A stretch of DNA of 17,788 nt from a virus (Duplodnaviria; Heunggongvirae; Uroviricota; Caudoviricetes). The notes beneath the pieces are model-generated. The model ran no database searches, was not told the DNA's origin, and saw only the letters and a list, made by a program, of their open reading frames with translations. The position numbers and the translations under genes were made by a program. This document shows positions 766 to 17,788 of the stretch, piece after piece. The stretch lies in IMG/VR virus record IMGVR_UViG_2870464427_000002; one strand, given 5' to 3'. Within the stretch, counting starts at the first letter, position 1; each line of letters starts with the position of its first letter.

Positions 766-781
766 TGCCCGGCGTTATTTT
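754..781 (+). terminator. Rho-independent terminator between convergent genes
   Basis: 8-bp GC stem (754-761 pairing with 767-774), 5-nt loop, then T-tract TTATTTT (775-781). Overlaps the nucleotidyltransferase stop codon (763-765). Confidence 0.5.
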
Positions 782-1939: not shown

Positions 1940-3516
1940 GCTAGCCTCACAATATAGTTGAATGCGATATTTTTGACGGTGTTTTCGGTGCTGCCGGTAT
2001 TATTAATGGTTAGGGAGTGGTTATGGGAACCAAGTGCAATTGAATGCGAATGGGTGCCGAGCGCAACAGTGTGCGAATGGGAACCAATTGTAACACTATG
2101 AACGTGTGATGGAACATTAATTGCCAAAGATGATCCGGTACCAGGGCCATATGATGTCCAGTCGCCTTGGCCCTCTGGTGAAGATGTCCCTGTTCTTACT
2201 GTTGCAGTTGCCGAGCCTGAGCCAGATGAACTTGTTGTTTTATTTCCATGGTTAAATGATGATGCAGTTTTAGTCCCCAAGTCTGTGAGGGGTGTGGTTT
2301 TCGTCCCTAAATCAGTACTCGAAATACTGCCCGTATGGTTATGTGATTTAACTCCATCCAGTTCAGTAGATAATATAGCGCGCCCACTGGATGGTTTTCC
2401 TTTAATTATCCATCCGCGCATATCAGGAATAACACCAGATGGATATGCAATTGCCAGTTTGGGATAGGAGGTTTTATTAAATGTCTGACCTGTCATCAGA
2501 GCGTAGCCTGAAGGTACAGAATCAGATGGCCAGGGAATAGGCATCCCAACAGGACAGCTTTCCGCAGCAATAGCCTTATCCATCGCTGCCTTAACCGCGT
2601 TCGGCGTCGCAGCTTCCGTCGTACTGGTGCTGTTGGTCGCATTATTAAGTTTCACGACCCCTTTTTGTGTCAGCGTACCGTCGGGGATACCTGTTATTTG
2701 CCCCCAGGCATGGGTATGGCTGGACGGCGCCGCAGCAATAGCCTTGTCCATCGCTGCTTTAACCGCACTTGGCGTTGCAGCTTCCGTTGTACTGGTGCTA
2801 TTTGTTGTGTTGTTAAGTTTAACGACTCCTTTCTGCGTCAGTGTACCGTCAGGGATACCAGTAATCTGATTCCAGGCATGAGTATGACTGGTTGCGGCTT
2901 TGCTATTTGCCAGGTCATATGCCGTTTTTACCGCTTTTGGCGTGGCTGCTTTAGTCTCATCATCGCTATTAGTTGCATTACTGAGCTGCGTAAAACCTTT
3001 TTGTGTCAGCGTCGCATCAGGATGATTTCGTGATTGCTGATGTGTTTTCAACGCGTCATCGACATATTCCCTGGTTGCCACAACGACTGAAGGGTCGATC
3101 AAAAGCGTCACCGCGTCTGCATTGGTGACTTCCATGACCGCGCGTATAACGATTTGCTTACTGGCCCCCGCAGGTAATCGTGGCTTATAGGTTTCCGGGA
3201 ATTTACCAATAGCGACCAGCGTGCCGTCGGTATCCAGTAACCCAACTTCGCGTACATACCAGCCTCCGACTTGTTCGGGAATAATCGCTTCTGCGATAAC
3301 CCAGGCCGGATTATCTGGCGCAATTTTTAATGTATTGAGCTGACCACGCCAGACCTCATGGACTACTTTGGTCTGACTTTCTGTCGGTTCGATATATTTA
3401 CCATTACCGTCGCCAACTACCATAGTTTGCAGACGGATCTGTTTTTGCTCGGCCAGTGCTGAGGCAATTTTGGCTTTGCCTGCAGCAGTTAATATTGTAA
3501 AAAATTCACTTGCCAT
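1936..3516 (-). CDS. tail fiber protein (P2 gpH / Mu S-like)
   Basis: Start set at ATG 3514-3516 ([16 protein letters not shown]...), 5 bp after the gpI stop; the longer track ORF overlaps gpI and is rejected. Conserved baseplate-attachment N-domain, three tandem fibre repeats (TLTQKG...ATNS...AATP.AVK.A.D.A), Gly/Ser/Thr-rich C-terminus with repeated S-H-x-H motifs. Confidence 0.85.
2518..3012 (-). repeat. tandem coding repeats, unit about 171 bp (57 aa), three copies, inside the tail fiber gene
   Basis: Near-identical DNA blocks, e.g. 2641-2700 versus 2812-2870. Protein repeats [49 protein letters not shown]. Confidence 0.7.
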
Positions 3517-3518
3517 TA

Positions 3519-4250
3519 TTACTCCGGATATACAGACATAATTTCGGTGCTCCAGTATCCTGTGCCGACCTTCATCGGTTGGGATTGTGTAAGGCGATCG
3601 GGTTGATAAGGTAGTAGTTGGATATATTCCTCCACACAATAACCCGTCGCTAAAAATATTCCTGATGACTGGCTGAGGCTTTCTGCAACAGGAGGCAATA
3701 CTGTAATGACTTCCCCTCCTTGCATGGCGCTGCCAATAACTGGTATTGGGCTTCGATTAATAAGCCAAATAACAATGCTTTCCAGCTTTGAACGAACATT
3801 TTTATATTCATGAATTAATGTGATAAGTGCATTGAATTCATCTTCATTTAATCCTTTTTCCTCTAGTGTAATATTTACCTTAAAAAAATAAGCCCTTCCC
3901 CCATATTCAAACCATTCTGAAATAGTTCCGGGTAAGGAAAGTATTTCCAGCACTCGCCGTACCGCCCAAATTGTTCCTTTATATTTATGCAGTTCAATGG
4001 CTTGTTTAATTAACTCGCGTTTCTCCCGCTCATCGGTGGTAAATAACCAACCTTCCAGCCCCTGAACGTGAAATTGTTCTGCAAGGGCTGGTAATGCCGA
4101 AGCATCAACCAGGTCGACCAGATAAACCATCAACGCCGTCAGATCGAGTTGGGCAAAACGCTCGGCGGCGATGTTTGCCAGAATCGAAAAACGCTCATCG
4201 CTGGCAAGCGGCGGCGGTGGCAGCAATTTATCCATCGCTGACTCCGGCAA
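3519..4250 (-). CDS. tail/baseplate protein, P2 gpI family
   Basis: 243 aa. LLPPPP...ER...LD...VD..DASALP.LA..FHV.G...W......[21 protein letters not shown] matches the gpI family pattern. Start may be the internal Met at 4235; overlaps the gpJ stop. Confidence 0.8.
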
Positions 4251-5343
4251 TCGTGACGTCTATTGCAGTGCATTCCGCCCATTCATGCGCCTGCAAAATA
4301 CGTTTTGTAGGCATATTCAGCGCAACGTCATAGACGCCATCGACCTGTAACACTTTGATTATCTGGTTTGGCACAATGTCCTGCCCCAGATGTTTCTGCC
4401 GCTGTTGCGTCCAGAGGCTAATCGCTTTACGCGCCGCAGCCAGCGTTGTCTCCTGATCGGCGGTGGTAAACAGCATTAGCTGCGCACGGATCTCATACGG
4501 CACTCGAAGAGCGCATTTCGCACTCACTTTGTCGGTCAGCGGTCGTTTTTTCTCCTTGCTGACTTCTTGTTCAATCTGCGCCAGCAACTCCGTGCCGGGT
4601 AGACCATTCAGGGTTAGCGGGTAGATCTCCACGCAGCCTTCTGGCAATCCCTCGTCCGGCCCCAGTACTGCAACGTCAATAATCGACTGGCTAACAGAAA
4701 GCGTATGAAAGCGGTAGGCACCATAGCTGCCCGCATTACTAAAGCTTTCTGGTGCCAGTTGGATACGCTGGCGCAATGCGTCATCGCTCTCTTCACCGCA
4801 GCCGCCCGTTGACGCAGTCAGGTTGGTTACGTTGATGTCATAATGACCAATCCTGTCGACCAGTGCGCTAATTTGTGCAGGCTGCCAGCCGTTACCCTGT
4901 TCACCTGCTGCGAGGCTGGTGGCAGGAACGGCGATATGCAAACTCCTGGCCGGAAGCAGAACATCTTCATCGGTGGCGAACATCACGCTATCAGAGGCAC
5001 TGGCCCGCGTCCCCTGGGGAATCAGGATATTGCCGGGATACGCACTAACGACCGAAAACTGCAACGTCGTTTTTGCAGGCTGCGCAGGCAAACGGTGAAC
5101 TCCCACCAACTCCCCTAAATAATCCAGCATTGGCGCGCGGGAATACGCGACCAGGTTTTGTTTCGCCGCTTCCTGAATGGCGATGCGTACAAGGTTTTCA
5201 CGATAGGCAAACAGGTCGATGAGCAACCGCTCAGCCTGTGCCGGATAGAGTTTTTTACCACTGGCATCTTCGTATTGCGCAATCATCTCACTGGTAATTT
5301 GCGCAGGATCGCGGTCAATAAAATTGGGTTCGGCTATCGCCAT
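4228..5343 (-). CDS. baseplate wedge protein, gpJ family
   Basis: 371 aa. Segments GSYGAYRFHTLSVSQSIIDVAV, LGQDIVPNQIIKVLQVDGVYDV and C-terminal [14 protein letters not shown] align with P2 gpJ as I recall it. Confidence 0.85.
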   Translation of the reverse strand: MAIAEPNFIDRDPAQITSEMIAQYEDASGKKLYPAQAERLLIDLFAYRENLVRIAIQEAAKQNLVAYSRAPMLDYLGELVGVHRLPAQPAKTTLQFSVVSAYPGNILIPQGTRASASDSVMFATDEDVLLPARSLHIAVPATSLAAGEQGNGWQPAQISALVDRIGHYDINVTNLTASTGGCGEESDDALRQRIQLAPESFSNAGSYGAYRFHTLSVSQSIIDVAVLGPDEGLPEGCVEIYPLTLNGLPGTELLAQIEQEVSKEKKRPLTDKVSAKCALRVPYEIRAQLMLFTTADQETTLAAARKAISLWTQQRQKHLGQDIVPNQIIKVLQVDGVYDVALNMPTKRILQAHEWAECTAIDVTIAGVSDG

Positions 5344-5693
5344 AACACCTCCGTTGAGTTGATAACGCCGTCAGCGGCGCGCCATTGCACACGTAACGTC
5401 AGATGTTCGCCGTCGATTACTGGTGTCACCTTCAGCAACCGACAGCGCGGTTCCCACTGGCGGATGGCTTCCACCGACTCCCGTACCACATGCGGGATAG
5501 CCCGCTCGATGGGGTAATCGATGTAGTGCCACAAGTTGCTGCCAAACAGCGGTCTGTGGGGATCACTGCCGCGCGGTGTACGCAGAATGATGTGTATTGC
5601 CTGGTGAATATCATCCAGCCCGCAGACGTATTCTTCAGGCCGCTGCAAGGCCGGTTGCCAGTGCAGCGTTGAGGGGCGTGTTTTTGTGTTCAT
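5334..5693 (-). CDS. baseplate protein, gpW/gp25 family
   Basis: 119 aa. Core I...I.ILRTPRGS and W.Y...P.........V.EAIR.WEPR match the GPW/gp25 family. Confidence 0.8.
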   Translation of the reverse strand: MNTKTRPSTLHWQPALQRPEEYVCGLDDIHQAIHIILRTPRGSDPHRPLFGSNLWHYIDYPIERAIPHVVRESVEAIRQWEPRCRLLKVTPVIDGEHLTLRVQWRAADGVINSTEVLWR

Positions 5694-5766
5694 GAGGGTA
5701 TTTTCGCCCTGAACGGGCTGTGGAGATATTAAAGCGATTTAGAAAACTGATTGATTAAAAAGAGAA

Positions 5767-5786
5767 AACCCGCCATCAGGCGGGTT
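5767..5786 (-). terminator. hairpin with downstream U-tract on the minus strand, between gpV and gpW
   Basis: AACCCGCC-ATCA-GGCGGGTT perfect 8-bp stem. On the minus-strand transcript it is followed by TTCTCTTTTT. Sits in the 98-bp gap after the gpV stop (5792-5794). Confidence 0.4.
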
Positions 5787-5791
5787 AAAAG

Positions 5792-6493
5792 TCAGTGTGA
5801 ATGGTGGTTGGAGTTGCCACCGCTGTCCTGCAATGCGCCGCTGGCCTGAACGTTGCCGATCACGTTGACATTGCCGGTTATCGTGGCTGCGTTACCGATG
5901 CCTCCACTTCCTGCCATCCCGCCAAGCCAGGTGAGTTTTTTCATTACCGTGACGTTGCCAGTAAAGGTGCTCATGGGCGCATCTACCGTCACTGCTGCTG
6001 CTTTAACCTCGACCTTAGTGGCGTCGATGCTGACATCGGTCGCTTTAACATCGACGGTATCGGAAGTCACGGTGACGTGTTGGGCTTTAATCTCAACGTT
6101 GGGCGATGTCAGGCGGGTGCTGTCGATAACCTCAATCACGATTTTCTCGATACCGCCGTTAATCGTCAGCTGGTGCGTGCTGCGGTCATATTCAAACGCT
6201 GCGCCATCAGAAAACTGGACGTAACGTTTGTCGCGCGAGGCTACAGGCGCGGTGTCAACCGTAGAATAAACGGCACCCAGCACCACGCCATCTTCACCGT
6301 TATCGTCCAGCAGAACTTCCACTTGCTCGCCCATATCCGGTAGCCAGTAGTCTTTATTGTCCTGGGAATTGCGTTGAAGTACCGCAAGCCAGTTGCTCTT
6401 CAGATTGTCACACTCTGGTAGAGTGACCCGTACCCGAACACTGGTTTCGTCAATATCGCTGATAATCCCCGTTTGACGGGTTACTCCTTTCAT
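5792..6493 (-). CDS. baseplate central spike, gpV family
   Basis: 233 aa. N-terminal OB-fold-like region typical of gpV spikes, a repetitive beta-rich middle (VTVTSDTVDVKATDVSIDATKVEVKAAAVTVDA) and a His-rich C-terminal tip (GGNSNHHSH). Confidence 0.8.
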   Translation of the reverse strand: MKGVTRQTGIISDIDETSVRVRVTLPECDNLKSNWLAVLQRNSQDNKDYWLPDMGEQVEVLLDDNGEDGVVLGAVYSTVDTAPVASRDKRYVQFSDGAAFEYDRSTHQLTINGGIEKIVIEVIDSTRLTSPNVEIKAQHVTVTSDTVDVKATDVSIDATKVEVKAAAVTVDAPMSTFTGNVTVMKKLTWLGGMAGSGGIGNAATITGNVNVIGNVQASGALQDSGGNSNHHSH

Positions 6494-6502
6494 ATTTCCT
6501 CC

Positions 6503-7543
6503 TTACTGGCTGGTCGCTGGCCCGCGTGACACGTCGATTTCAGTGGTATAGCCGCTGCGCACAAAACTGTGAGTAGATTTATCAATCAGCCACTGACCGG
6601 AAATCACGCCAAAATCGGTCAGTTCAATTTTATTGCCCGCCGTCAGTTCCGGGCAGCCCATCATTGTGAGCGTTCCGGTTTGCTGATATTCGTTGTGGCT
6701 GTCGAGTGCAGCGTTAGCCTTTGCCTGTGCTGCGCCAACGTCCGTCGCCCGACTGTTCAGTTTTAGCGTGTCGGCACTAGTGCCGACTCCACGGACAGAT
6801 GGTTTTTGCTGGCTGTTGTGAGTGTAGATAACCAGTTCTTTTTTCTTACTATTTTGATGCTGTACGGTGGCGTTCTTGTAGATCCGGTTAATGGTGTCTT
6901 TGAAGGTAAAATGAGAAACCTCTTTGCGATCGATCTTTTTCACAGGCGTCAGGCAGCGCAGCGTGGGTAAATGTGAAAAAATCAGCTCTTTTGTCGTCAC
7001 TTTTACGGCATAACCATATTCACTGGCCAGACGTTTGAGAAATCCGACATCGGTTTCACCATACTGCGTTACCCGGTCGATGGTGAGCGACTCGATTTTG
7101 CCCACCAGTTTCAGACCGTGCGTTTGGGCAATACGGCTGGCGATCGCCGAAAGCGTCGTTTCTTCAAAGCCCTGGCTGTTACGGGTGCGCAGCGCCTGAT
7201 TGACGGAAGTGGCGATGCCATCAATATTTACCGTGGAAGGTGGCGCTGAAATATCAATTTTATCAATAATATACTGGCCACAATCGAGCAGCTTTTCCCC
7301 CTGATAACCTATATGCAGCGCCAGCGTATCGCCTTTGCCGGGATACCACTCTTTTATCCAGCGTCCATCTGTGTCATCCAGTGTAATTGCGATGGTATCC
7401 GACTCGTTTTTGATGCTGTCGTGGTAACTGATGCTGGTGACATAGGGTGTGATGTCATAAGTGATATCTTTATGCCCATACCAGAGGGTAAAAATGGGCG
7501 TGAGTGTGGCAAAGACGCCACCAGTTACGCTCATCTCAGCCAT
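6503..7543 (-). CDS. baseplate hub protein, P2 gpD (late control D) family
   Basis: 346 aa. Size, position between gpX and gpV, and overall composition fit the gpD/gp27-like hub family; call rests on synteny and general resemblance. Confidence 0.75.
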   Translation of the reverse strand: MAEMSVTGGVFATLTPIFTLWYGHKDITYDITPYVTSISYHDSIKNESDTIAITLDDTDGRWIKEWYPGKGDTLALHIGYQGEKLLDCGQYIIDKIDISAPPSTVNIDGIATSVNQALRTRNSQGFEETTLSAIASRIAQTHGLKLVGKIESLTIDRVTQYGETDVGFLKRLASEYGYAVKVTTKELIFSHLPTLRCLTPVKKIDRKEVSHFTFKDTINRIYKNATVQHQNSKKKELVIYTHNSQQKPSVRGVGTSADTLKLNSRATDVGAAQAKANAALDSHNEYQQTGTLTMMGCPELTAGNKIELTDFGVISGQWLIDKSTHSFVRSGYTTEIDVSRGPATSQ

Positions 7544-7740
7544 GGTGGGATCTCCGATAAGGTTTTATTAACGGAAATGACCGGAATAATGAGCTGAATA
7601 CCGGAAGGCAGTACCGGGTAAATGGCTACATGTGGATTGGCGGCGATTATGCGTTCATAAGCCAGCGCATCACCGTAGTAATGCCATGCCAGGTTATCCC
7701 AGCGTTCGCCATCGGTGGTGATATGTTCAAGGTATCGCAT
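7531..7740 (-). CDS. tail protein X (P2 gpX-like, LysM-like fold)
   Basis: 69 aa. W..L...YYG.......I..ANP..A....LP.G....IP pattern as in P2 gpX. Overlaps the gpD start. Confidence 0.7.
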   Translation of the reverse strand: MRYLEHITTDGERWDNLAWHYYGDALAYERIIAANPHVAIYPVLPSGIQLIIPVISVNKTLSEIPPWLR

Positions 7741-8693
7741 TACCAGCTCCTGGTAATGGTTACGGCAGCAAGCTGGCTCACTGCGGGAGTGGTTTGTTGT
7801 ACCGTTGTACGTGCCTGCTCAACCAACGACGTGGCTTTATCGAACGTCGCTTCGGCGATGTCGCTGGTAATGTCGTCGAAAAGCGCCTGAGCATGGTCAA
7901 CCAGCGTACTGGCGTCATTGGCGCAGTCCCGGATACCTGGCATGTTACCCAGTAAAGCTTTAATCTGCGCCGACAACGCTTTTGGTAGGCCTGCCAGCGT
8001 TTGCAGATCCATTGGCTGTTTAAACAGGGTTTCGATGGCGTCGATTGTCTTTTTCAATGACGTAATTATCTTTTCACACTTTTCTTTTAACGCTTTGGCC
8101 TCTTTAATCATTGCTTTCACTTTTGCCACCGTTTTTTTAATATCTTCAATGGATTGTGTCAGTTCATCCAGCATCTCTTTGGCCTTACGCATACCTTCTT
8201 CAATGGCGTTTAATATCTGATCAAACCAGGACTCCACCTTGTCGGGAAAATCGCTCGCCTTTTCCTCGATGTTGGGCTCCTGGGTGGTAATCGCCGGAGG
8301 TAAAAGTGGATTTTTAGGATCGCCGGTGTACTCCTGGAGCGACATCGTTCCGTTTTGGGCAATCACATTGCCCCAGGGATCGGTGTGCTGGTGGGTGGCG
8401 GTTAGCTCCGTAATCACAAACCAGCCGCGATAATCGCCATTGCCAAATACCAGTGCCATCGCCTTGTGAGCAAGCATGGCTTCACGCAGTCGGTTCAGCT
8501 CTGTTGTGGGCTGGCAAAACTGGCTGTGCAGGGAAAATTCCAGCGCCAGCATATCCAGCTTATCGCCAATAAACTGCACGCCGGGTTTGCCTTCTATACG
8601 GGCATGTGTGGCGTAATCCACGCCCATTGTGCTTTTAAAGCCGTCCCAGAATGTGACAACCTTAAATTCAATCTCTCCTAAAACGGCATACAT
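7740..8693 (-). CDS. gpU-like tail protein with a long C-terminal coiled-coil extension
   Basis: 317 aa. The first ~120 aa (MYAVLGEIEFKV...GKPGVQFIG...L.LEF.L.........L..L...AM....MALVFGNGDYRGWFVITEL) resemble P2 gpU. The remaining ~190 aa are Lys/Glu/Ala-rich heptad-like sequence. Start overlaps the tape measure stop by 1 nt. Confidence 0.65.
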   Translation of the reverse strand: MYAVLGEIEFKVVTFWDGFKSTMGVDYATHARIEGKPGVQFIGDKLDMLALEFSLHSQFCQPTTELNRLREAMLAHKAMALVFGNGDYRGWFVITELTATHQHTDPWGNVIAQNGTMSLQEYTGDPKNPLLPPAITTQEPNIEEKASDFPDKVESWFDQILNAIEEGMRKAKEMLDELTQSIEDIKKTVAKVKAMIKEAKALKEKCEKIITSLKKTIDAIETLFKQPMDLQTLAGLPKALSAQIKALLGNMPGIRDCANDASTLVDHAQALFDDITSDIAEATFDKATSLVEQARTTVQQTTPAVSQLAAVTITRSW

Positions 8694-11068
8694 TAGGCAT
8701 ACCCCCGGCGCTGCTGCTGCGCCATTACATCGTTAATCATTCTTTCCAGTTCGCGTTTACTCATCGTCAACACGTTCTGAATCTCTTTAGTGGTGTTTTG
8801 TCCGTTACCCTGCACGGTAATTTGTGGCGAAAAATTCACCTGAACTTTTCCTGAGGAACGGGAAGGTAGCGTCGCCGCTTTGGTTACGGATTTACCAGGT
8901 AAAGAGGCAGATACGGGTTTGGCGGCTGTATTTTTTGCCGCTGGCGCCGATGACGGCGTAGCCGTTTTGCCGGATGGCGCGAGTTGTTTGCCCACCGGCG
9001 GCGTTAAAATCGCACCGGCAACGCCTGGAACAACGGTCGCGGGGGAGACGGATGCGGTATTAGTCGTGCTTGTAATAGCTGTAGCCGATCCTTCTGTACT
9101 AATACCCATCGTGGTTTTTAGCCAGTCTGGGATGGCGTTTTTTACCTGATCAATAATGCCTTTCAGAGCGGGGAAGGCATTCATTATGCCGTCAACCAGA
9201 CTGCCCAGAAGATTGCTGCCGAACTCGCTAAAACTTGCAGGCATCTCGACACCAAACCAATTCATCACACTGGAAAAGGCGCTATAGAACAACTCCAGCG
9301 GTGACCAGTCGAGAATCAACCGACAAATTCCTGCAATGCCGCCGTCAAAGGCCGTGGTGATACGTTGCCAGATGGTCGAAAAGAACCTGGAGATAGGCTC
9401 CCAGTTGCGATAAATCAGATAAGCAGCGCCCGCAATCGCAGTGATGACCAGACCAATGGGATTCATCAGTAGCACCCGGCCTAGTGAGAGAACGGTCCGA
9501 CCAACCAGTTTCAATGTTCCAATCAGGCCACGACCAAGCAGTTGCGTTAGCCATTTTGCGCCGCCACCCAATGACTTAACCGCTGATAGCATCTTACTTG
9601 CCCCGCCTGTGAGCGCCAGACTTGCCTTGACTTTCAGGAAGATATCGACCAGACGAATAAACGGCGAGGTGATGAGGTTCGCGCCCAGCTTTAAAACATT
9701 CAGCGCACCGTTAAACAGCCAAATCGCCCCGACGATTTTCGCGATGTTTTGCACCAGTGTCGGGTGCTCACGTAGCCAGGCGCTGAACTGACGAATAACC
9801 GGCGTAAGGCTTTGTGCCAGCTCGCCAATCAGCGGCATTAATTGCAAGCCAATGCTGAGCCATAAATCATTTAACGCCAGCTGTAACGCTTTAGTCTGTT
9901 CAATGGGCGAGGCCATTTGCGCAGAAAAGTCGGCATCAATCAGATTCTTGCTGGTGGCTTGCATGGCAGAGGCTTTTAACTGGCGATATTCCTCCATATT
10001 CGCCAGCATAGGGGCCAGGAATTCCACTGTTTGCGCATCGCCGAACATTTCCCCCAGATTAAACTGCGTCACCATCGATTGCAGCGCATTGCTGCGGGCA
10101 GATAAATCTTCGATCTGCATGGTGCGTTTGAAGGTGTCGAGGATCGCCGGATTCATCTTCTCAAGCTGCATTTGCACGATATGAGTCATGGCTTCGCTAA
10201 CACCCATACCGTTTTGCTGATGCTCAAGCAGAGAGCCTTGCAGATCAACGCCCTGGCTGACGAACCAGTAATCGGTTTTTTTCGAAAAGGTGGTTTGCAG
10301 AAAGTGGTCGAAATTCTCCGCCGCCGCACTGGCGCTGGCCCCGTTTTTCATGGCGATCTGCATGGTGGCGGTCAGTTCAGCCATACCTTCCAGACCCTGA
10401 GCGCCGGTTTTACCTGCAAATTTCTCTATCCACTGCGTTTGTTCAGCAATGGCAGGCCCACCGCTTTTGCTAATGCCGTACATCATGTTTTGCGCGGCGT
10501 GGAAATTTTCCGGGGCAATATTCAGTCGATCATGGGTTGCGAGCGCGGCATTCGCCCATGTTTCAGCACTTTCGCGCGTGGCGGTGGCAGCTTTGGCGAT
10601 CTCCGGCATATAACGGTTGAGATCCTGTATCGACGACAAATTGCCTTCGATCAGCGTTTGGGCTGCGTTCTGTAAGGTGGTCTGCTGCTGGTTAAAATCC
10701 ATGCTCCAGTCGCGCAGATTAAGGCTGAGCGTCTCGCGGGTTGTAGCATTCATCCCACCTTTGGTCGCCATATTGACCATGTTGTCCTGAAACTCATACG
10801 GCAACTTCCAGTCGGGGGCTTCAACATTGAATACTTTGCTAAATTGCCCGGCAAATGTTTGGGTTTTCTCCATCAGATTAGCGCGGCTGCGGCTATTTTC
10901 CTCCAGGCGGAGAGCGGAATCGGCAAGCTGCTGCGTTAGTTTGATAACTGTCGCCTGCTGAGTAGAGAGAGTTAACAATGTTCTGGCGTTGAGTGAGCCG
11001 TAACGGGCTATTGCCTGCGTCAACGTCTCATTACGCGCCTGAAGCTGGGTAATAATATCGTTGGCCAA
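8693..11068 (-). CDS. tail tape measure protein
   Basis: 791 aa. Alpha-helical N-terminal region, central hydrophobic Gly-rich segments (LIGTLKLVGRTVLSLGRVLLMNPIGLVITAIAGAAYLIY), Ser/Thr/Pro-rich C-terminal region. Lies between the chaperone and baseplate genes. The track start is a TTG codon, so the exact start is uncertain. Confidence 0.85.
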   Translation of the reverse strand: MANDIITQLQARNETLTQAIARYGSLNARTLLTLSTQQATVIKLTQQLADSALRLEENSRSRANLMEKTQTFAGQFSKVFNVEAPDWKLPYEFQDNMVNMATKGGMNATTRETLSLNLRDWSMDFNQQQTTLQNAAQTLIEGNLSSIQDLNRYMPEIAKAATATRESAETWANAALATHDRLNIAPENFHAAQNMMYGISKSGGPAIAEQTQWIEKFAGKTGAQGLEGMAELTATMQIAMKNGASASAAAENFDHFLQTTFSKKTDYWFVSQGVDLQGSLLEHQQNGMGVSEAMTHIVQMQLEKMNPAILDTFKRTMQIEDLSARSNALQSMVTQFNLGEMFGDAQTVEFLAPMLANMEEYRQLKASAMQATSKNLIDADFSAQMASPIEQTKALQLALNDLWLSIGLQLMPLIGELAQSLTPVIRQFSAWLREHPTLVQNIAKIVGAIWLFNGALNVLKLGANLITSPFIRLVDIFLKVKASLALTGGASKMLSAVKSLGGGAKWLTQLLGRGLIGTLKLVGRTVLSLGRVLLMNPIGLVITAIAGAAYLIYRNWEPISRFFSTIWQRITTAFDGGIAGICRLILDWSPLELFYSAFSSVMNWFGVEMPASFSEFGSNLLGSLVDGIMNAFPALKGIIDQVKNAIPDWLKTTMGISTEGSATAITSTTNTASVSPATVVPGVAGAILTPPVGKQLAPSGKTATPSSAPAAKNTAAKPVSASLPGKSVTKAATLPSRSSGKVQVNFSPQITVQGNGQNTTKEIQNVLTMSKRELERMINDVMAQQQRRGYA

Positions 11069-11257
11069 AATTGTTTCTCTTTAAATATTGATAATGGCCC
11101 GCTGGTTATTTTTCTAAAAAAAGGGGCAGGGAAGAAATAAACCTGACGGGCTTGGGAAACTCGCAGACATCAGGTCTGCGAGTCATATTCGATTTTTATT
11201 TGGGCGCTGGCTTCATCCAGCCAGTTGCTAAAGTCATCGACGGTAAGGGCGTCTATC

Positions 11258-11575
11258 TCACTGGGTGGAAAGCGAAACCATCTCGCCAGTAACGCCATCG
11301 CTTGCCATAACAGTGGCGGATTCTGTAGCCACGCTAAGCATGGATTGAAATCGTTTCTGCAATGCCTGGTAATCCAGCAAATCCATTTCAGCTAAATCTT
11401 CTGGCACCAGTCCGGTCATTGCCGCCATTAGCGGTTCATCCCACTCTTCAGGTTTTTCGCTGATCCGGCGCGCGTTGCGCATATCTTTTACTTTCAGGCG
11501 ACGTAATTGCAGAGTGTTAATTACGTCTCCCGCCGCTGAAGTAAACGGGAACTGTAAGATATAATGTTCTTTCAT
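11258..11575 (-). CDS. tail assembly chaperone, P2 gpE family
   Basis: 105 aa, acidic, in the conserved position between tube and tape measure. An alternative frame stays open past its stop (see findings). Confidence 0.75.
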   Translation of the reverse strand: MKEHYILQFPFTSAAGDVINTLQLRRLKVKDMRNARRISEKPEEWDEPLMAAMTGLVPEDLAEMDLLDYQALQKRFQSMLSVATESATVMASDGVTGEMVSLSTQ

Positions 11576-11625
11576 TTTGTGTCCTTATTTATTTTGCAAA
11601 GTTCGGGGCCGTAGCCCCGAATAAC

Positions 11626-12150
11626 TTAGCCACCGATGTTATTGCGATAGGTACTTAATTGATCCACACCATTAACCCGGAAAATATTGGCCATATAATC
11701 AAGTTCAAGCAGCGTTTCACCATCAACTACTTGTTTAATATAAGTGCAACCAAAGGCGCTGCTGAATTCCGGGTTTTCATTCTGTTTAAATGTGCCCAGT
11801 GGATTCTTTTTAAACATCACGGTTAAATGTGTCACTAGCGCTAATTGATTCGCTTTCCCCTGGGAGTTATAGCAATCAATACTGGAGCGGCACTGTAATG
11901 CAACCGCCTGCCACGGGTTTGCCGTTTTACGCATTACGTCCTGATAGAAGGAGTTCCATTTAATTTCGCCCTCCAGTTTATCGAAACCCGCCGGGAGTTC
12001 GATTTTACCCACCATGCCCAGTGCTTTATGCTCCTGCATAATTAAACTGACATCCGGCAATTTAATTTCGGTTGCACGACCTAAAAGGTTATTACCATCG
12101 AGATAAATATTGGCGTTGGTAATACGGTTAATTTGAATTTTTCCAGCCAT
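11626..12150 (-). CDS. tail tube protein (P2 FII family)
   Basis: 174 aa. C-terminal ...VNGVDQLSTYRNNIGG closely matches the P2 FII C-terminus (VNGVD.L...R.NIG). Start overlaps the sheath stop by 1 nt. Confidence 0.85.
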   Translation of the reverse strand: MAGKIQINRITNANIYLDGNNLLGRATEIKLPDVSLIMQEHKALGMVGKIELPAGFDKLEGEIKWNSFYQDVMRKTANPWQAVALQCRSSIDCYNSQGKANQLALVTHLTVMFKKNPLGTFKQNENPEFSSAFGCTYIKQVVDGETLLELDYMANIFRVNGVDQLSTYRNNIGG

Positions 12151-13573
12151 TAGCTATTGCTCTCCAGAGAGACTAAATATTCAGAAGTAATTTCAGTTTC
12201 AAACGTCAGACGTTCCAGCGGCGGCGGCGGGGTGAATTTATAGCTCAGCAATAAATGCCCAGCGCTGAGTTCAGTCGGTGAATTTCGCGCCGGATCGTAC
12301 CAGCATTCAAAGCCAAGCAGTGCGCCGTCGGCAATCAGCTTACGGCCCCAGGTATTTACCGATTCGGTCAGGGCATCAATCAGCGCCTGATTAATCGGCA
12401 TATCAATATACTGCTGACTGAAATAACGGATTGACTCATTAATTACATCGCCTGTCCGGCGGACGTTTTCAAAGTTACGCATATGGGTCACGGTAGGCCA
12501 CGCTGCAGTGCGGTTGCCCCACAAGCGCAGACCAGAGCCGTAACTATTGAAAATAGTGGTAATGCCGTTTTCGTTTAGCTGATTCACTTCGCTTTGTGGA
12601 TCATCAATCATTGCGGAAAGCGAACGTTCAATACCGGTAATACCCTGAATTTCTTGGTTTGAGTTGCTCCACCAGAAACCTTTTTCGAGGTCTACTTTGG
12701 CACGTAGCCCGGCAGCGCGCGAAGAGAGCGGTTCGAGAACTTCCTGGTTAGTGATGCCATCGTAAACTTTGACGTGTGGGTAACATAAACGCGCACGATC
12801 AGAGCTGGTGTTGAAGTTGATAGCCCCTTGCGAACCGCGTCCTGCCAATACCTGCTGGAATGTCGTCCCAATCGGGGCATCAATGTAGGTAATCGCACCA
12901 AGTTTTTCCGCTTGTGCAATCAGCTCTGTAGTTACTGATTTTTGCGTACAGAACACGGGAGCAAGCAGGATTTTGGCGTAGAAACCATACAGGTTATAGG
13001 TGTCCTGTAGCAGTTTCATCCCCGTGCGGTCGCCTGCGGTATTTACGGTACCGATAATATCGGCTGCGGTGACCTTTGTAGGGTCGCACCAGGAATAATA
13101 GGCACAAACTTTCGCACCAGGAGGAATGTCGGCTCCTTTACGGGTAATTATGCCTGTTTGTTCATCTACGCTAAATGCTGCGGTGTTAAAGGTTGATGAA
13201 TTTGATGAAGAGGGCTTTAGTACCACGTTACGCACATTGCGGTGAGCGAGCTTCGCCTGGTTGTTAGCATCAAAAGTGATACTCTCATTGCTGATGTTGG
13301 AGCCATGTTTTGCCGGATCCAGCACGTTAATCACCACCACCGTACCGGCACCGTGGTCATAAATTGCCTTCAGTGCCTGTGGGATCGTAAAGTTAGCCTG
13401 AGTCGAGCCAAACTGCGCAGCATCGCTTTCAGAAAGGCATAATGTTGGTTTATTTACCGGACCGCAGGGGCTGTACCGATTAAAGCGATGACGGCGGATT
13501 TTACCGCTTTAACCGGACGCGGGCCGGTTTCAATTTCAATAGTTTCTACACCGTGCAGATAATTAGCTGCCAT
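12150..13573 (-). pseudogene. contractile tail sheath (P2 FI / Mu L family) interrupted by an apparent 1-nt frameshift near 13457-13468
   Basis: From ATG 13573 one frame encodes MAANYLHGVETIEIETGPRPVKAVKSAVIALIGTAPAVR then stops (TAA 13454-13456). The adjacent frame is open from 13508 and continues PVNKPTLCLSESDAAQFG...VVVINV... through the 396-aa track ORF, whose C-terminus (LRLWGNRTAAWPT...YKFTPPPPLERLTFE) is sheath-like. One extra G in mRNA GCGGTCCGG would join the two frames. Confidence 0.7.
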
Positions 13574-13760
13574 GTACAATTTCCTCTACGTTATTTTGTT
13601 CTTCCTGAGTGATGACAGGAGTCAGATGATTGCGGGCAATCATGGTCATGACCCACTCGTTGTCTTCTGGCAGATCAATTTCACTGTTCGGCCACAATAA
13701 GATTTCTTGTCCATCGGCAAGGGTGACGCCGCTTGCTGGGCCGTTGTAGATGTATTTCAT
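13563..13760 (-). CDS. small hypothetical protein upstream of sheath
   Basis: 65-aa ORF overlapping both neighbours. Its position recalls the small gene preceding the sheath gene in Mu-like tail modules. No motif recognised. Confidence 0.45.
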   Translation of the reverse strand: MKYIYNGPASGVTLADGQEILLWPNSEIDLPEDNEWVMTMIARNHLTPVITQEEQNNVEEIVHGS

Positions 13761-14212
13761 TCAGTTTCCTCGTAGTTAACTTCCGTAAGCAGGGGAAGAT
13801 CCGTGCTTTCCTGTTCAGCGATAAATAGCGAGCTGGTCGCCATTTCCAGGATGTAGCGGCAGAAACCGCCGCTCTCACCCGTATTAATTTCTTTTTCAAG
13901 CCAAAGAAGACGATCGCAATCAGGAAGCTGAAGGCCACCCAATGCGCTGCGTATGTGATCAAGTGCGTTTAATGCATCACAATTTTTGCCAACAATAACG
14001 GTGGCGGTTAAGCGGAGTATTTGCTGTTGCACGATGGCATTACTGCTTTCGGGCGTAGCAAAGACAGAACCGCTATAATTAATAATCACTGCAACTCGTT
14101 GTGTCTGTGGAATATATTTCTGGGCATCCTTAGATGAAATAAATATATCCATTTCGGAGTTGTGTTCACGTAATCTGGTCACAACAGAATTCATTACAGA
14201 TAAAATTTCCAT
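13757..14212 (-). CDS. hypothetical tail-associated protein (possible tail completion protein)
   Basis: 151-aa ORF with an AAGG ribosome-binding site upstream of ATG 14210-14212; first gene after the terminator. Function inferred from position only. Confidence 0.5.
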   Translation of the reverse strand: MEILSVMNSVVTRLREHNSEMDIFISSKDAQKYIPQTQRVAVIINYSGSVFATPESSNAIVQQQILRLTATVIVGKNCDALNALDHIRSALGGLQLPDCDRLLWLEKEINTGESGGFCRYILEMATSSLFIAEQESTDLPLLTEVNYEETE

Positions 14213-14317
14213 ATAGGCTGTACCTTAATTACCGCTCACTTCGTTATCGTTGAAATGTATTCTGAAGCAGCGAAGGTGAAGAATCTTTTAATGTGATTTA
14301 GAGAAAAAATTGAATGG

Positions 14318-14343
14318 TTAAAAAAATCCCCACCCTTACATAA
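14318..14343. terminator. strong bidirectional intrinsic terminator between the lysis cassette and the tail genes
   Basis: Perfect 11-bp stem TCCCCACCCTT / AAGGGTGGGGA with loop ACAT, flanked by A7 (14311-14317) and T5 (14344-14348). On the minus strand the hairpin is followed by a U7 tract. Confidence 0.6.
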
Positions 14344-14356
14344 GGGTGGGGATTTT

Positions 14357-14671
14357 TCAATAACTGCCACGTTGTAACAGCTCGATTTTGCTATATAAGG
14401 CATCCAGCTTCGCTTCTAATACTGCTTGCCCACGAAGATAATCTTCTCTGCGGACATAATGCAGCGGAAGCTCGGCACGAAATTCGAGAAATTCTCTTTC
14501 CAGTTTCGACCAACTTGTTTCTGATTCCCGGCGCGCGTTTTCCAGAGATTCAAAACGCTCATTAAGTCGTTTTTCAATTTGTGCTAACAGCAGTTTTCCG
14601 GCAGCAAACATTAATCCAACGAAGGAAAGCATAAGGGAGATCACTTCCCAAAAATCGATACTGAGTTTCAT
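14357..14671 (-). CDS. membrane-anchored coiled-coil protein, possible lysis accessory (spanin-like)
   Basis: 104 aa. N-terminal transmembrane helix (VISLMLSFVGLMFAAGKLLL) followed by a charged helical region. Last gene of the lysis block. Confidence 0.45.
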   Translation of the reverse strand: MKLSIDFWEVISLMLSFVGLMFAAGKLLLAQIEKRLNERFESLENARRESETSWSKLEREFLEFRAELPLHYVRREDYLRGQAVLEAKLDALYSKIELLQRGSY

Positions 14672-14683
14672 CGGCCCCTCTGA

Positions 14684-15289
14684 TTAATGAAGACAGCTTG
14701 CCTGTCCCCAGAGTAAATAGCGGGCGGCATGTTGATAGAGGATCATCTTTGGATAGCGACGATTTTCTCGCCAGTTCGTGGCGCTGCGCCCGGCGTTGAC
14801 TTGCTCAACATGACCAAACCAGCTAGTGGCATCTAACCCTTTGGATGCAGCCAGTTTTTTATCCCGGTTAACCCACCCCTGACCGCCGTTATAGGCGCTT
14901 AGGGTAAACGCCATACGCTGACAATCATTTTTCGCAGAGATGTTTTTCCACAAATGCTGGTCATATTGCACCAGCGCGCGAATCGCCCAGGTTGGGTTAT
15001 ACGGTTTGTTTTCACGCAATTGTGGATACAACTGGCTTATCCATGTCGCTGTAGCAGGCATAAATTGCGCCATACCTTGTGCGCCAACGGGGGAACGTAC
15101 CATTGGCTGCCAGGCGGACTCCTGGTGTAATTGCCCGGCAAAGTCGGCCACTGGGGCATTCAGCCCCCAGACTTCTCGAGCTGTACGAATTAGTTCGTTT
15201 CGCCATGCCAGAGAGGCTCTCGGCGGTTCAGAGGCGTTGAGTGGGAAAAGAACGAAAATAATCATAGACGCGATATATTTCAGCCACAT
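14684..15289 (-). CDS. lytic transglycosylase (SLT/GH23 domain) with N-terminal signal sequence; putative endolysin
   Basis: Start set at ATG 15287-15289 (MWLKYIASMIIFVLFPLNA...), 2 bp after the holin-like stop; the track's longer N-terminal extension is rejected. SLT motifs present: HQESAWQP, GAQGMAQFMPATA, AYNGG. Confidence 0.8.
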   Translation of the reverse strand: MWLKYIASMIIFVLFPLNASEPPRASLAWRNELIRTAREVWGLNAPVADFAGQLHQESAWQPMVRSPVGAQGMAQFMPATATWISQLYPQLRENKPYNPTWAIRALVQYDQHLWKNISAKNDCQRMAFTLSAYNGGQGWVNRDKKLAASKGLDATSWFGHVEQVNAGRSATNWRENRRYPKMILYQHAARYLLWGQASCLH

Positions 15290-15291
15290 CA

Positions 15292-15579
15292 CTATAGCCC
15301 TAACGCGACGGAAAGGCAGACGGCAGCAACGATGATAGCCCGGCGAATCATTGCCGCCGCGCAGCAACGCGGTTCCTTCCAGGGGCAAAAAGAGTCAGGC
15401 CGTGCCCAGGGGAACAAACTGCGATCGAGCCAGTATCCCAGCACCGCGGAAAGCGAAACCAGGCTTAGTTTATAAATGACGACCGGGATTTGTGCTGAAG
15501 AGGTCCAGCCGATCACGACAAACAGCGCGACGGAAGCGACCAGCCAACCGGAAAGCCGGGGAAGAGTGACTTTTTTCAT
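15292..15579 (-). CDS. small membrane protein, putative holin
   Basis: 95 aa with two to three predicted transmembrane segments. AGGAG ribosome-binding site 8 nt upstream of ATG 15577-15579. Immediately precedes the transglycosylase. Confidence 0.5.
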   Translation of the reverse strand: MKKVTLPRLSGWLVASVALFVVIGWTSSAQIPVVIYKLSLVSLSAVLGYWLDRSLFPWARPDSFCPWKEPRCCAAAMIRRAIIVAAVCLSVALGL

Positions 15580-15875
15580 ACGGTATCTCCTGATAAGTGA
15601 GCGTTTAGTGTCGCCAGAACCCGCCAGTGAAGAATGAAAAAAGCTTTAATAAATAAGTTTAAAAAATAGATTCTCTATAAATGAACATGCCCGCTAATAA
15701 ATCCACTCAGCAATTAAAGAGCAAAAGGTGACCTCGCGAATAAGCGCGTCATTATGCAGGGAAAAGATGATGGTGAATCGTAGGAATAGTCAGTAGTTAT
15801 TTGATTTTTAAAGTTTGTTTAAGAAAGTCAGCGACTGTGAGGGAAACGATCTTTTTACACTACAAGTAAAAATAA

Positions 15876-15889
15876 TACTGTATGTGTAT
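15876..15889. promoter_or_regulatory. left half of a LexA (SOS) box split by the insertion (TACTGT + duplicated spacer)
   Basis: Removing the insertion and one duplication copy gives TACTGTATGTGTATACAGTA, a perfect 20-bp palindrome with the CTGT-N8-ACAG architecture (18/20 to TACTGTATATATATACAGTA). Confidence 0.45.
15882..15889. repeat. target-site duplication, left copy (ATGTGTAT)
   Basis: Identical 8-mer directly abutting the left inverted repeat; second copy at 17206-17213. 8 bp is the duplication size expected for ISL3-family elements. Confidence 0.75.
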
Positions 15890-17205
15890 GGGTCTTCCCT
15901 TGTTGTGGTGGCTGAAGGCATGATAATGGTGTATTTAATCGCCAGAGGTCACCGCCATGGACGAAAAGTCCCTCTACGCTCATATTCTCAACCTGTCCGA
16001 TCCGTGGCAGGTAAAGTCCCTTTCTCTCGATGAAAATGCCGGTTCTGTTACTGTCACTATTGAGATCGCTGAAAACACCCGGCTAGCCTGTCCGACCTGC
16101 GGTAAATCCTGTTCTGTTCACGATCACCGTCATCGTAAATGGCGCCATCTTGATACCTGCCAGTTCACCACTATTGTTGAAGCCGATGTTCCACGAATTA
16201 TGTGTCCGGAGCATGGCTGCCTGACGTTGCCTGTTCCGTGGGCTGGCCCCGGAAGCCGGTATACGTTGCTATTCGAATCGTTCGTTCTCTCATGGCTGAA
16301 AATCAGCACCGTTGATGCTGTCAGGAAGCAACTTAAGCTCAGTTGGAATGCGGTTGACGGCATTATGACCCGGGCAGTTAAGCGAGGTCTTGCCCGGATA
16401 AAAAAGCCATTATCCGCCCGTCATATGAATGTGGATGAGGTCGCCTTTAAAAAAGGACATCGTTACATAACGGTGATCTCCGATCGCGATGGTCGGGCGC
16501 TGGCCTTAACGGATGATCGCGGCACAGAGAGTCTTGCCGGCTATCTTCGCACGCTCACTGATGGGCAGTTGCTGGCTATCAAAACGCTCTCAATGGACAT
16601 GAACGCGGGCTATATAAGAGCAGCGCGTATCCACTTACCCAGTGCGGTTGAGAAAATCGCCTTTGACCGCTTCCATGTGGCGAAGCAACTGGGCGAGGTA
16701 GTTGATAAAACCCGTCAGAATGAACATCCGCACCTCCCTGTTGAAAGCCGACACCAGGCAAAAGGAACCCGCTTCCTGTGGCAGTACAGCGATAAGTGGA
16801 TGACCGAATCCCGGCAGGAAAAGCTGATGTGGCTGCGTGCACAGATGAAGCTGACGAGCCAGTGCTGGGCGCTGAAAGAGCTGGCAAAGGATATCTGGAA
16901 CAGGCCATGGAGCGAGGAAAGACGGAGTGACTGGCAGAGATGGTTGGCGCTGGCGGCTAACAGTGACGTTCCCATGATGAAAAATGCCGCGAAAACGATA
17001 GGAAAAAGGCTGTACGGGATCCTGAATGCGATGCGACACAGTGTCTCAAACGGAAATGCGGAGGCACTTAACAGCAAGATCAGGCTGCTGAGGATAAAAG
17101 CCAGGGGATACCGAAACCGGGAGCGCTTTAAACTGGGGGTGATGTTCCACTACGGAAAGCTGAATATGGCGTTCTGAGCCTTCCCACCATGATCGGGGAA
17201 GACCC
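15890..17205 (+). mobile_element. ISL3-family insertion sequence, 1316 bp, apparently intact
   Basis: Terminal inverted repeats GGGTCTTCCC (15890-15899) and GGGAAGACCC (17196-17205), with further inner matches (TGGTGG). Flanked by 8-bp direct repeats ATGTGTAT. Carries a single transposase ORF. Confidence 0.8.
15957..17177 (+). CDS. ISL3-family transposase
   Basis: 406 aa. N-terminal zinc-ribbon CPTCGKSCSVHDHRHRKWRHLD and the MNVDEVAFKKGHRYITVISD block are characteristic of ISL3 transposases. Confidence 0.85.
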   Translation: MDEKSLYAHILNLSDPWQVKSLSLDENAGSVTVTIEIAENTRLACPTCGKSCSVHDHRHRKWRHLDTCQFTTIVEADVPRIMCPEHGCLTLPVPWAGPGSRYTLLFESFVLSWLKISTVDAVRKQLKLSWNAVDGIMTRAVKRGLARIKKPLSARHMNVDEVAFKKGHRYITVISDRDGRALALTDDRGTESLAGYLRTLTDGQLLAIKTLSMDMNAGYIRAARIHLPSAVEKIAFDRFHVAKQLGEVVDKTRQNEHPHLPVESRHQAKGTRFLWQYSDKWMTESRQEKLMWLRAQMKLTSQCWALKELAKDIWNRPWSEERRSDWQRWLALAANSDVPMMKNAAKTIGKRLYGILNAMRHSVSNGNAEALNSKIRLLRIKARGYRNRERFKLGVMFHYGKLNMAF

Positions 17206-17213
17206 ATGTGTAT
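17206..17213. repeat. target-site duplication, right copy (ATGTGTAT)
   Basis: Identical 8-mer directly abutting the right inverted repeat. Confidence 0.75.
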
Positions 17214-17219
17214 ACAGTA
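17206..17219. promoter_or_regulatory. right half of the split LexA (SOS) box (duplicated spacer + ACAGTA)
   Basis: See left half. This half lies 21 bp upstream of a TTGACA hexamer. Confidence 0.45.
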
Positions 17220-17240
17220 TCGTGTAAAATGATACACCTG

Positions 17241-17270
17241 TTGACAAGAAACATAACGCAAACAATATAT
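17241..17270 (+). promoter_or_regulatory. candidate sigma70 promoter upstream of the Mor-family gene
   Basis: TTGACA (17241-17246), 17-18 nt spacer, then AATATAT (17264-17270). Followed by about 170 bp of AT-rich leader. Confidence 0.3.
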
Positions 17271-17440
17271 CTATTTCATGAATTTATGGCGTTCATTAAT
17301 ATTAAAAATTTATATTTTTGTTAATTGTTTATTTGTTTGTTGAATGTATTGAGTAGCAGTAATGACAACTGCTTAGCGTATATCCGTGGTTTTACACGCA
17401 TCGGGTCTTATTCAGGATGCAAGATATATGGAGATGAAAA

Positions 17441-17788
17441 ATGATACGAAAATCAAAAGAGATGGCCCGGACACCGGAGATCATTAACGACCTGGCTTTT
17501 CATGCATCGCAAGTTCTGATTGAAAGCATCAATCTCGACAGTTCATCGGCAGAAAATGTGGGCTTTGCCATTGCCGACCGAATGATGCGTAACTGGGGCG
17601 GACAAAGCATTTATTTCCCTAAGGGGATCTCCGGACGAGCATCGGAGCGTGACTACCAAATCTATAGCGAGTGCGATGGGCGCAACTACGCCGAATTAGC
17701 GAAGAAATATAATCTGACGCTGCAATGGATTTATAAGATTGTGAAACGCGTACATGCGGAAAAGCAACAGCGCCGCAGTAATTCGTAA
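17441..17788 (+). CDS. Mor/C-family transcriptional activator (phage Mu middle/late activator family)
   Basis: 115 aa. GGAG 7 nt upstream of the ATG. WGGQSIYFPKG...RD..I......G.NY.ELAKKYNLTLQWIYKIVKR aligns with Mu Mor (GGGQVYIPRG...RDLRIWNDFNGRNVSELTTRYGVTFNTVYKAIRR), including the C-terminal helix-turn-helix. Stop codon is the last three bases of the window. Confidence 0.75.
   Translation: MIRKSKEMARTPEIINDLAFHASQVLIESINLDSSSAENVGFAIADRMMRNWGGQSIYFPKGISGRASERDYQIYSECDGRNYAELAKKYNLTLQWIYKIVKRVHAEKQQRRSNS

Follow-up and report, generated by a model that had tools for sequence, protein, structure and literature searches.

ISKox3 in the spacer of a predicted LexA operator beside an Escherichia coli tail/lysis cassette, and the preference of its clade for CTGT-N8-ACAG targets

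The 17,788-nt stretch of DNA analysed here in its entirety (the window; IMG/VR record IMGVR_UViG_2870464427_000002, filed under Caudoviricetes) is E. coli chromosome. Within it, a copy of ISKox3, an insertion sequence (IS) of the ISL3 family, divides a near-consensus LexA box lying between a predicted tail and lysis cassette and a divergent gene of the Mor family. This insertion was targeted and not random, as ISKox3 and its relatives are site-specific for CTGT-N8-ACAG, and their target consensus, (TA)CTGT-N8-ACAG(TA), is identical to the operator consensus of gammaproteobacterial LexA. We are highly confident in the following as the best explanation of the observations as a whole: the ISKox3 clade targets SOS boxes, and at this locus it split the probable operator of a leftward promoter facing the tail and lysis genes.

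The inserted element and its empty site

The element and the box that it divides are arranged as follows:

15876-15881: left half-site (TACTGT) of the split LexA box
15882-15889: left copy of the 8-bp target-site duplication, ATGTGTAT, which is the N8 spacer of the box
15890-17205, plus strand: ISKox3, ISL3-family insertion sequence, 1316 bp (full-length 100% identity to annotated ISKox3; Pfam domains)
15890-15911, plus strand: left terminal inverted repeat of ISKox3, whose first 20 nt served as the census anchor
15957-17177, plus strand: ISKox3 transposase gene, 406 residues, the single open reading frame (ORF) in the element (Pfam; annotated elsewhere as WP_000343760.1)
17184-17205, minus strand: right terminal inverted repeat of ISKox3
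17206-17213: right copy of the 8-bp duplication, ATGTGTAT
17214-17219: right half-site (ACAGTA) of the split LexA box

An earlier reading of this DNA, made from its letters alone (the original prediction), had assigned the inserted element to the ISL3 family. Both its protein domains and its identity bear this out. The transposase matches DDE_Tnp_ISL3 (PF01610, E=9.9e-56), HTH_Tnp_ISL3 (PF13542, E=3e-13) and Zn_ribbon_ISL3 (PF14690, E=1.9e-11), while the element shares 100% identity, over all 1316 bp, with ISKox3 copies annotated on hundreds of plasmids, IncX3 and IncF among them, in records that describe an 'ISL3-like element ISKox3 family transposase'. The terminal inverted repeats, GGGTCTTCCCTTGTTGTGGTGG and GGGTCTTCCCCGATCATGGTGG, are imperfect and match at approximately 17 of 22 positions. 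The element thus corresponds to ISKox3 as annotated in RefSeq and ISfinder in its sequence and length, in its 406-residue DDE transposase with zinc ribbon and helix-turn-helix, and in its 8-bp duplications.

ISKox3 is a known active element that transfers from IncX3 NDM plasmids to the chromosome (PMC12057282). The junction between IS and flank seen in the window was found in three complete genomes, among them that of E. coli CREC-544. Plasmid pCREC-544_2 of this strain also carries ISKox3, in the gene context found on the IncX3 NDM-5 plasmid pK516_NDM5, and this copy is the probable donor of the chromosomal insertion in CREC-544.

Removal of the IS and one repeat in silico yields TACTGTATGTGTATACAGTA, a 20-bp palindrome. 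At least 20 E. coli chromosomes match the excised junction (1175 nt, both flanks included) at 100% identity from end to end, and 186 of 5426 complete E. coli genomes cover 80% or more of it; the empty site carries a single copy of ATGTGTAT. The palindrome is thus a contiguous site that existed before the insertion and not a product of the IS. The original prediction had proposed looking for strains lacking the insertion; these E. coli genomes are such strains and have the 20-bp palindrome intact. They also agree with it in that the duplication, present on both sides of the IS, is the exact spacer of the palindrome, that the reconstructed site is a near-consensus LexA box, and that it lies, by its coordinates, in the divergent region between the lysis/tail operon and the Mor-family gene. 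Closeness to the consensus was measured as a mismatch count against TACTGTATATATATACAGTA, the gammaproteobacterial LexA consensus as quoted in PMC8072944. The box agrees with it at 18 of 20 positions, including all 12 of the half-sites, and both mismatches fall in the spacer.

Target specificity of ISKox3 and its relatives

The preference of the clade was established by a census of IS flanks, in which the first 20 nt of the IS end alone served as the query against species-representative genome and metagenome collections. This returned 97 loci (33 from genomes and 64 from metagenomes), which were reduced to 76 clusters by merging near-identical flanks. Hosts included Kluyvera, Citrobacter, Klebsiella, Morganella and many gut metagenomes, with 23 copies in the IS-rich symbiont Candidatus Symbiopectobacterium endolongispinus. 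The copies ranged from 100% down to approximately 76% identity with ISKox3, and a few longer elements shared only the end.

CTGT was found exactly at -12 to -9 in 55 of the 76 flank clusters (47 of 53 outside the symbiont genome) and 0-1 times at any other offset, against a background of 0.4% per position in the surrounding DNA (binomial P ~3e-114). On the other side of the element, ACAG occupied +9 to +12 in 25 of 36 distinct right flanks. The resulting consensus, TACTGTATATATAT to the left and ATATAAATACAGTA to the right, reads TACTGT-ATATATAT and ATATAAAT-ACAGTA, respectively, which is the LexA consensus. The clade thus makes staggered cuts, 8 bp apart, where CTGT and ACAG meet the spacer, such that the duplication always equals the N8 spacer, and copies consequently accumulate in the operators of SOS genes. 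Derivation of CTGT-N8 from the IS itself was considered and ruled out by empty sites at two loci and by the variable sequence of N8.

ISKox3 proper behaves in the same manner. In a BLAST search with the left junction, many other E. coli copies of ISKox3 also matched the 20 nt outside the IS. In OW967966, ISKox3 lies at the identical position between the Mor and holin genes, in an allele diverged by 3% (flanks 97.1% identical). There, both copies of the duplication read ATATGTAT instead of the ATGTGTAT of the window, and the insertion is therefore independent. In strain M217 and many others, ISKox3 (100% identity) is found upstream of tisB between TACTGT-TTATTTAT and TTATTTAT-ACAGTA (in M217, at positions 3021-4336 of locus L002, NZ_AP019189.1 28550-34760). 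Read on the opposite strand, the reconstructed tisB site is the operator oligonucleotide with which LexA binding was studied in PMC3159453. The tisB::ISKox3 junction occurs in 189 of 5426 complete E. coli genomes (3.5%), and the intact tisB site in 4151. With the same geometry, 100%-identical ISKox3 splits three plasmid-borne umuD operators:

umuD site 1: AGCTGT-ATGCATAT-ACAGTA, adjoining truncated umuD on IncX3 plasmids of the pNDM5 type
umuD site 2: CACTGT-ATGTAAAA-ACAGGT, upstream of umuDC on an IncF plasmid
umuD site 3: TACTGT-N8-ACAGCT, upstream of umuDC on another plasmid

True ISKox3 is thus seen at six independent sites, all of the form CTGT-N8-ACAG and all with a duplication equal to the N8 spacer. 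Insertions of ISKox3 in capsule genes under selection have also been published (PMC12057282, PMC11836320).

The genes beside the census sites were surveyed by scanning ORFs that read away from the insertion against NCBIfam; of these 80 candidates, many are short and probably spurious. UmuD/HumD accounted for ten, SulA and DinI for two each, and DinD, DinB, PolB, RecA, UvrA, Cho, SSB and YdjM for one each. The orientation of the IS relative to the SOS gene showed no significant bias (about 8 to 4 at umuD sites).

Several members of the wider group merit separate mention. The genome of S. endolongispinus (L008-L030) holds 23 or more copies of a relative that is 1315 bp long, shares 76% identity with ISKox3 and is annotated 'ISL3 family transposase'. 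These copies adjoin recA, polB, sulA, uvrA, ssb, cho, ydjM, umuD-like genes and tag. The left and right flanks of these copies often derive from different SOS loci (L029, for example, is flanked by uvrA and cho). This implies IS-mediated rearrangements joining SOS operators and, possibly, a dismantled SOS regulon. Three longer elements, L072 and L073 (1761 bp) and L080 (1768 bp), have a left end of 20 nt in common with ISKox3; over the following 200 nt, L072 and L073 share little with it, as compared with approximately 82% in L080. All three lie at CTGA- or CTGT-N8 sites, with ACAG on the right in L072 and L073, and the end sequence and target preference may hence be common to a group wider than ISKox3. 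Finally, many Klebsiella pneumoniae plasmids (H86-H92) match only the last 57 nt of an ISKox3 relative, at 96.5% identity, and may carry solo right-end remnants.

The control region and competing readings

The box stands in a control region with the following neighbours:

15877-15882, minus strand: -10 hexamer TACAGT of the predicted leftward promoter, within the left half of the LexA box
17223-17228, minus strand: -35 hexamer TTTACA of the predicted leftward promoter, in conserved GTGTAAAA just right of the box
17241-17246, plus strand: TTGACA hexamer, 21 nt past the box, unsupported as a promoter element
15292-15579, minus strand: holin gene, part of the tail cassette
780-15579, minus strand: P2-like tail-only (tailocin-like) cassette (Pfam; RefSeq annotation of the identical empty-site locus)
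17441-17788, plus strand: Mor-family transcription activator gene (mor), 115 residues, divergent to the cassette (Pfam)

A consensus scan of 700 bp of the empty site called one sigma-70-like promoter, TTTACA-16-TACAGT on the minus strand, and pattern matching called the identical promoter in three lineages, namely E. coli, Superficieibacter and a metagenome orthologue. The call of this putative promoter rests on conservation and position, not on statistics. Likewise, TACTGTATGTGTATACAGTA is the sole CTGT-N8-ACAG in the 41-kb empty-site locus where 0.38 would be expected by chance, a count which carries no significance alone; the weight comes from conservation and from the IS census. Conservation was assessed by reaching orthologous loci beside lysC via Mor homologues and aligning their intergenic regions. 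Between genera this DNA is mostly diverged, and the box with the adjoining GTGTAAAATG forms a conserved island, shared by the two E. coli alleles, Superficieibacter electus and one metagenome relative (L041). In the Superficieibacter and metagenome relatives the box reads GACTGTATATGCATACAGTA. Such retention amid diverged surroundings favours a functional operator, and we consider it reasonably likely that the box acts as operator for a leftward promoter directed at the lysis/tail operon.

In relatives, a better promoter reading rightward, TTATCA-16-TATAAT, is found approximately 57 nt beyond the box, which suggests that mor is probably driven by a promoter of its own outside the operator. The original prediction had noted a TTGACA hexamer 21 bp from the box. 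Its position is as described, but a promoter role did not hold. The scan offered no acceptable -10 partner at 16-18 nt, and the hexamer is not conserved, a second E. coli allele having TTGATA in its place and Superficieibacter GGTGAA; TTGACA was accordingly ruled out as the mor promoter. Two further features of the region were noted. At 15644-15667, 65-90 nt upstream of the holin start, CTTTAATAAATAAGTTTAAAAAAT is almost invariant in E. coli, Superficieibacter and the metagenome relative amid diverged surroundings, and may be a Mor-dependent promoter or a regulatory element of another kind. Three copies of the motif TTTTACAC(G) lie in the divergent control region, at 15853-15860 (plus strand), 17222-17229 (minus strand) and 17390-17398 (plus strand). 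The -35 of the leftward promoter falls within the middle copy. The third, located immediately upstream of mor, lacks conservation in other genera.

Several observations weigh against parts of this account. ISKox3 proper makes up a minority of the census copies, most of which are relatives at 76-96% identity to it. Specificity is not absolute, as 21 of the 76 clusters lack an exact CTGT and capsule genes are also hit. A perfect 8-bp duplication was found in only 11 of 36 distinct complete IS copies, the others having unrelated half-sites that presumably arise by recombination between IS copies. Neither the orthologous Enterobacter locus nor the Salmonella remnant described below has the box, and LexA control is therefore not universal for the cassette. 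The leftward promoter matches the consensus at 9 of 12 positions, and the region has one such promoter against 2.2 in shuffles. The box lies approximately 300 nt from the holin ATG (and 222 nt from the mor start), although distance is no objection, since a functional Salmonella tisB box sits 236 bp from its ATG (PMC8072944). As terminator-like hairpins separate the LexA-box promoter from the holin gene in the metagenome orthologue (L041 2049-2067, minus strand), the leftward promoter may give a short leader, RNA or attenuator, not an operon transcript. The 300 nt between box and holin gene contained no convincing ORF of at least 20 residues on the right strand and no Rfam match. Lastly, the sheath gene of the window has a 1-nt deletion at 13467 (minus strand; GGGG, as opposed to GGGGG in the insertion-free locus of E. 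coli 2016C-3878, L001), which shifts its frame near the 5' end, such that the open frame starts only at 13340 and encodes 396 residues instead of 474. This may be a real frameshift or a homopolymer sequencing error, and the cassette may be defective whatever its regulation.

How the sites come to be chosen admits of more than one explanation. ISL3 elements are usually credited with a preference for AT-rich targets, and insertion might be near-random in AT-rich DNA, with copies in SOS boxes seen because they are tolerated or favoured; insertions in intergenic operators of non-essential genes are, after all, likely to be neutral. A register exact to the base, with CTGT at -12 in those 55 clusters and practically nowhere else, is at odds with this, as are two independent insertions at the same phosphodiester positions at this locus, and selection on expression levels cannot fix cut positions to the edges of half-sites. 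We consider this reading barely credible, the CTGT offset control refuting it in practice. A greater, if still low, probability attaches to guidance by LexA itself, whereby the transposase captures DNA bound or bent by the LexA dimer and the IS homes to occupied SOS operators. The target consensus does match all 20 LexA positions, outer TA and alternating AT spacer included, real operators with non-consensus half-sites are used (CTGA at uvrA/ssb in L020 and L029, CTGG at ydjM in L010), and SOS genes make up at least 22 of the 80 flanking ORFs. Against it stand intragenic hits with GC-rich spacers that are unlikely to be operators (L005, and L035 in a 389-residue P450-like ORF, spacer CCTTCGGA) and the selected insertions in capsule coding regions; together these argue that operator status is not required of a target. 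A symmetric palindromic consensus around a staggered cut is, moreover, usual for DDE transposases acting alone. A genome has some tens of CTGT-N8-ACAG sites, a large share of which are SOS boxes, so that sequence readout alone predicts the enrichment of SOS genes. The N-terminus of the transposase lacks similarity to LexA, though guidance by LexA does not need any. Most likely, then, the transposase reads the palindrome directly, without LexA protein.

It may also be asked whether the palindrome at this particular locus is only a hot spot for ISKox3, perhaps part of a promoter, and not a working LexA operator, leaving the cassette to Mor or other factors alone. Its absence from the Enterobacter and Salmonella orthologous regions and its distance from both start codons would fit, as would the use by ISKox3 of CTGT-N8-ACAG sites that are not operators, and its status as a LexA operator is a prediction. 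We nevertheless think this improbable. The half-sites are fully consensus, and the two spacer mismatches are no more than those of the verified tisB operator. The box has been kept across genera while its surroundings diverged, it overlaps the -10 of a conserved putative promoter, and the Salmonella tisB box functions at a comparable distance. The original prediction carried a related caveat, that the palindrome could reflect target preference of the element rather than a functional operator. Target preference is real, the clade being site-specific; the opposition is not, as the two readings are compatible and the tisB operator has been split as well.

Returning to an operator split by a site-specific element, ISKox3 entered the SOS box TACTGTATGTGTATACAGTA through the target preference of its clade for (TA)CTGT-N8-ACAG(TA). 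The half-sites are now 1.3 kb apart, as the original prediction stated and the coordinates confirm. Because a LexA dimer needs both, it should no longer be able to bind, and the operator would be destroyed. We infer, with that prediction, that SOS control is lost, to which we add that the predicted promoter itself is also broken: its -35 and -10 are parted by the same 1.3 kb, which would abolish SOS-inducible transcription and not derepress it, and a promoter scan no longer detects the leftward promoter in the window. The expected outcome would be a loss of SOS-inducible transcription toward the holin and tail genes, not constitutive expression. A hybrid promoter formed from the left end of the IS and the retained TACAGT was considered, but the best -35 at 18-nt spacing matched, by eye, only 3 of 6 positions and was treated as absent. 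Neither a scan nor inspection of the junctions revealed a reconstituted LexA box where IS meets flank, and the scan found none inside the IS. The mor gene would keep its own downstream sequences and now stands behind the transposase gene; no terminator was predicted between the two in a scan of the window, and transcription may run on into mor. Excision has been reported to restore capsule genes disrupted by IS, though not specifically for ISKox3 (PMC12057282), and the split state at this locus may be similarly reversible.

The cassette, known systems and significance

The cassette comprises genes for holin, SLT lysin, Gp37, sheath, tube, chaperone, tape measure, gpU/X/D-like proteins, baseplate V/W/J/I, fibre and fibre assembly. 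Pfam and the RefSeq annotation of L001 revealed no head/capsid, terminase or integrase genes within it, and from this gene content we infer a tailocin-like cassette. In the insertion-free locus of E. coli 2016C-3878 it lies between yjbD-side genes and lysC, a position that is syntenic in other genera. The Mor domain (PF08765, E=7.1e-38) spans residues 10-112 of the 115 encoded by mor, orthologues of which adjoin lysC in Salmonella, Enterobacter and Superficieibacter. In two Salmonella enterica loci (L037, L038) the mor orthologue, 89% identical, is still beside lysC, a hexapeptide-repeat gene has taken the place of the tail/lysis cassette, and no LexA box is present; this mor appears to be an orphan remnant. 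The sole substitution relative to L001 lies in the tape-measure gene at window position 9544 (G here, A in L001). In L001 RefSeq treats this gene as a pseudogene with an internal stop, and by minus-strand reading the difference would be CAA here as opposed to TAA there. Copies of the cassette in different strains thus carry different lesions.

R-pyocins controlled via PrtR/PrtN, carotovoricin with its Mor-like RdgB, and coliphage 186, with tum under LexA, are familiar instances of tail bacteriocins and P2-like elements under SOS control. The window cassette, as predicted from its genes, resembles them in being a tail-only cassette with a holin/lysin module, a small activator gene and a putative DNA-damage input. 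It differs in that its predicted LexA box appears to sit directly on a promoter facing the lysis/tail operon and in that its Mor-family gene is divergent with a probable promoter of its own. No cI-like or PrtR-like repressor was found in the annotation of the empty-site locus. The nearest parallel for the box itself is the tisB/istR-1 operator (PMC3159453, PMC2577331), which matches it in architecture and in nearness to the consensus and is split by ISKox3 in the same register. That operator has been verified experimentally, whereas the window box is predicted from sequence.

Published accounts of ISKox3 mention only 8-bp AT-rich duplications and list 'truncated umuD - ISKox3' as a plasmid context. 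A full-text search, with subscription journals and ISfinder notes outside its scope, found neither a defined target sequence for ISKox3 nor any IS targeting LexA boxes. Elements with palindromic targets are well documented, including IS30 at its hot spots, IS1397 and ISKpn1, and IS3- and IS110-family elements in repetitive extragenic palindromic (REP) sequences (PMC1525189, PMC12288879). ISKox3 resembles these in using, in precise register, a short palindromic host target present in tens of copies per genome. In contrast to them, it belongs to the ISL3 family, and its target is the binding site of a global repressor, such that each insertion removes a gene or operon from a stress regulon. ISKox3 itself, palindrome-targeting IS and SOS-controlled tail bacteriocins are thus already known, while an IS aimed at the LexA operator is, as far as we found, undescribed.

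A bolder possibility, to which we give a low probability, is that elements of the ISKox3 type evolved to enter LexA operators, the cue being bound LexA or a LexA-like readout, and that their transposition is coupled to the SOS state. If so, each hop would uncouple one SOS gene from LexA, such as the persistence toxin tisB, the mutagenic polymerase umuDC or tailocin lysis genes, and the recurrent tisB and umuD alleles in NDM-plasmid clones would be selected phenotypes, not neutral scars.

As ISKox3 rides epidemic carbapenemase plasmids, it can edit the SOS regulon of a new host in a predictable manner. Operators already split include that of tisB, in 3.5% of complete E. coli genomes, those of plasmid umuDC and, in the symbiont, those of recA, sulA, uvrA/ssb, polB, cho and ydjM. 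Such edits raise hypotheses about persistence, induced mutagenesis and the induction of tailocins and prophages in multidrug-resistant clones. The flanks of these IS serve as natural markers of LexA-type sites in genomes and metagenomes, and the element offers a tractable system for the reading of a 16-20-bp palindrome by a DDE transposase. At the locus studied here, a probable DNA-damage-inducible lysis and tail cassette would have been cut off from its promoter, perhaps reversibly.

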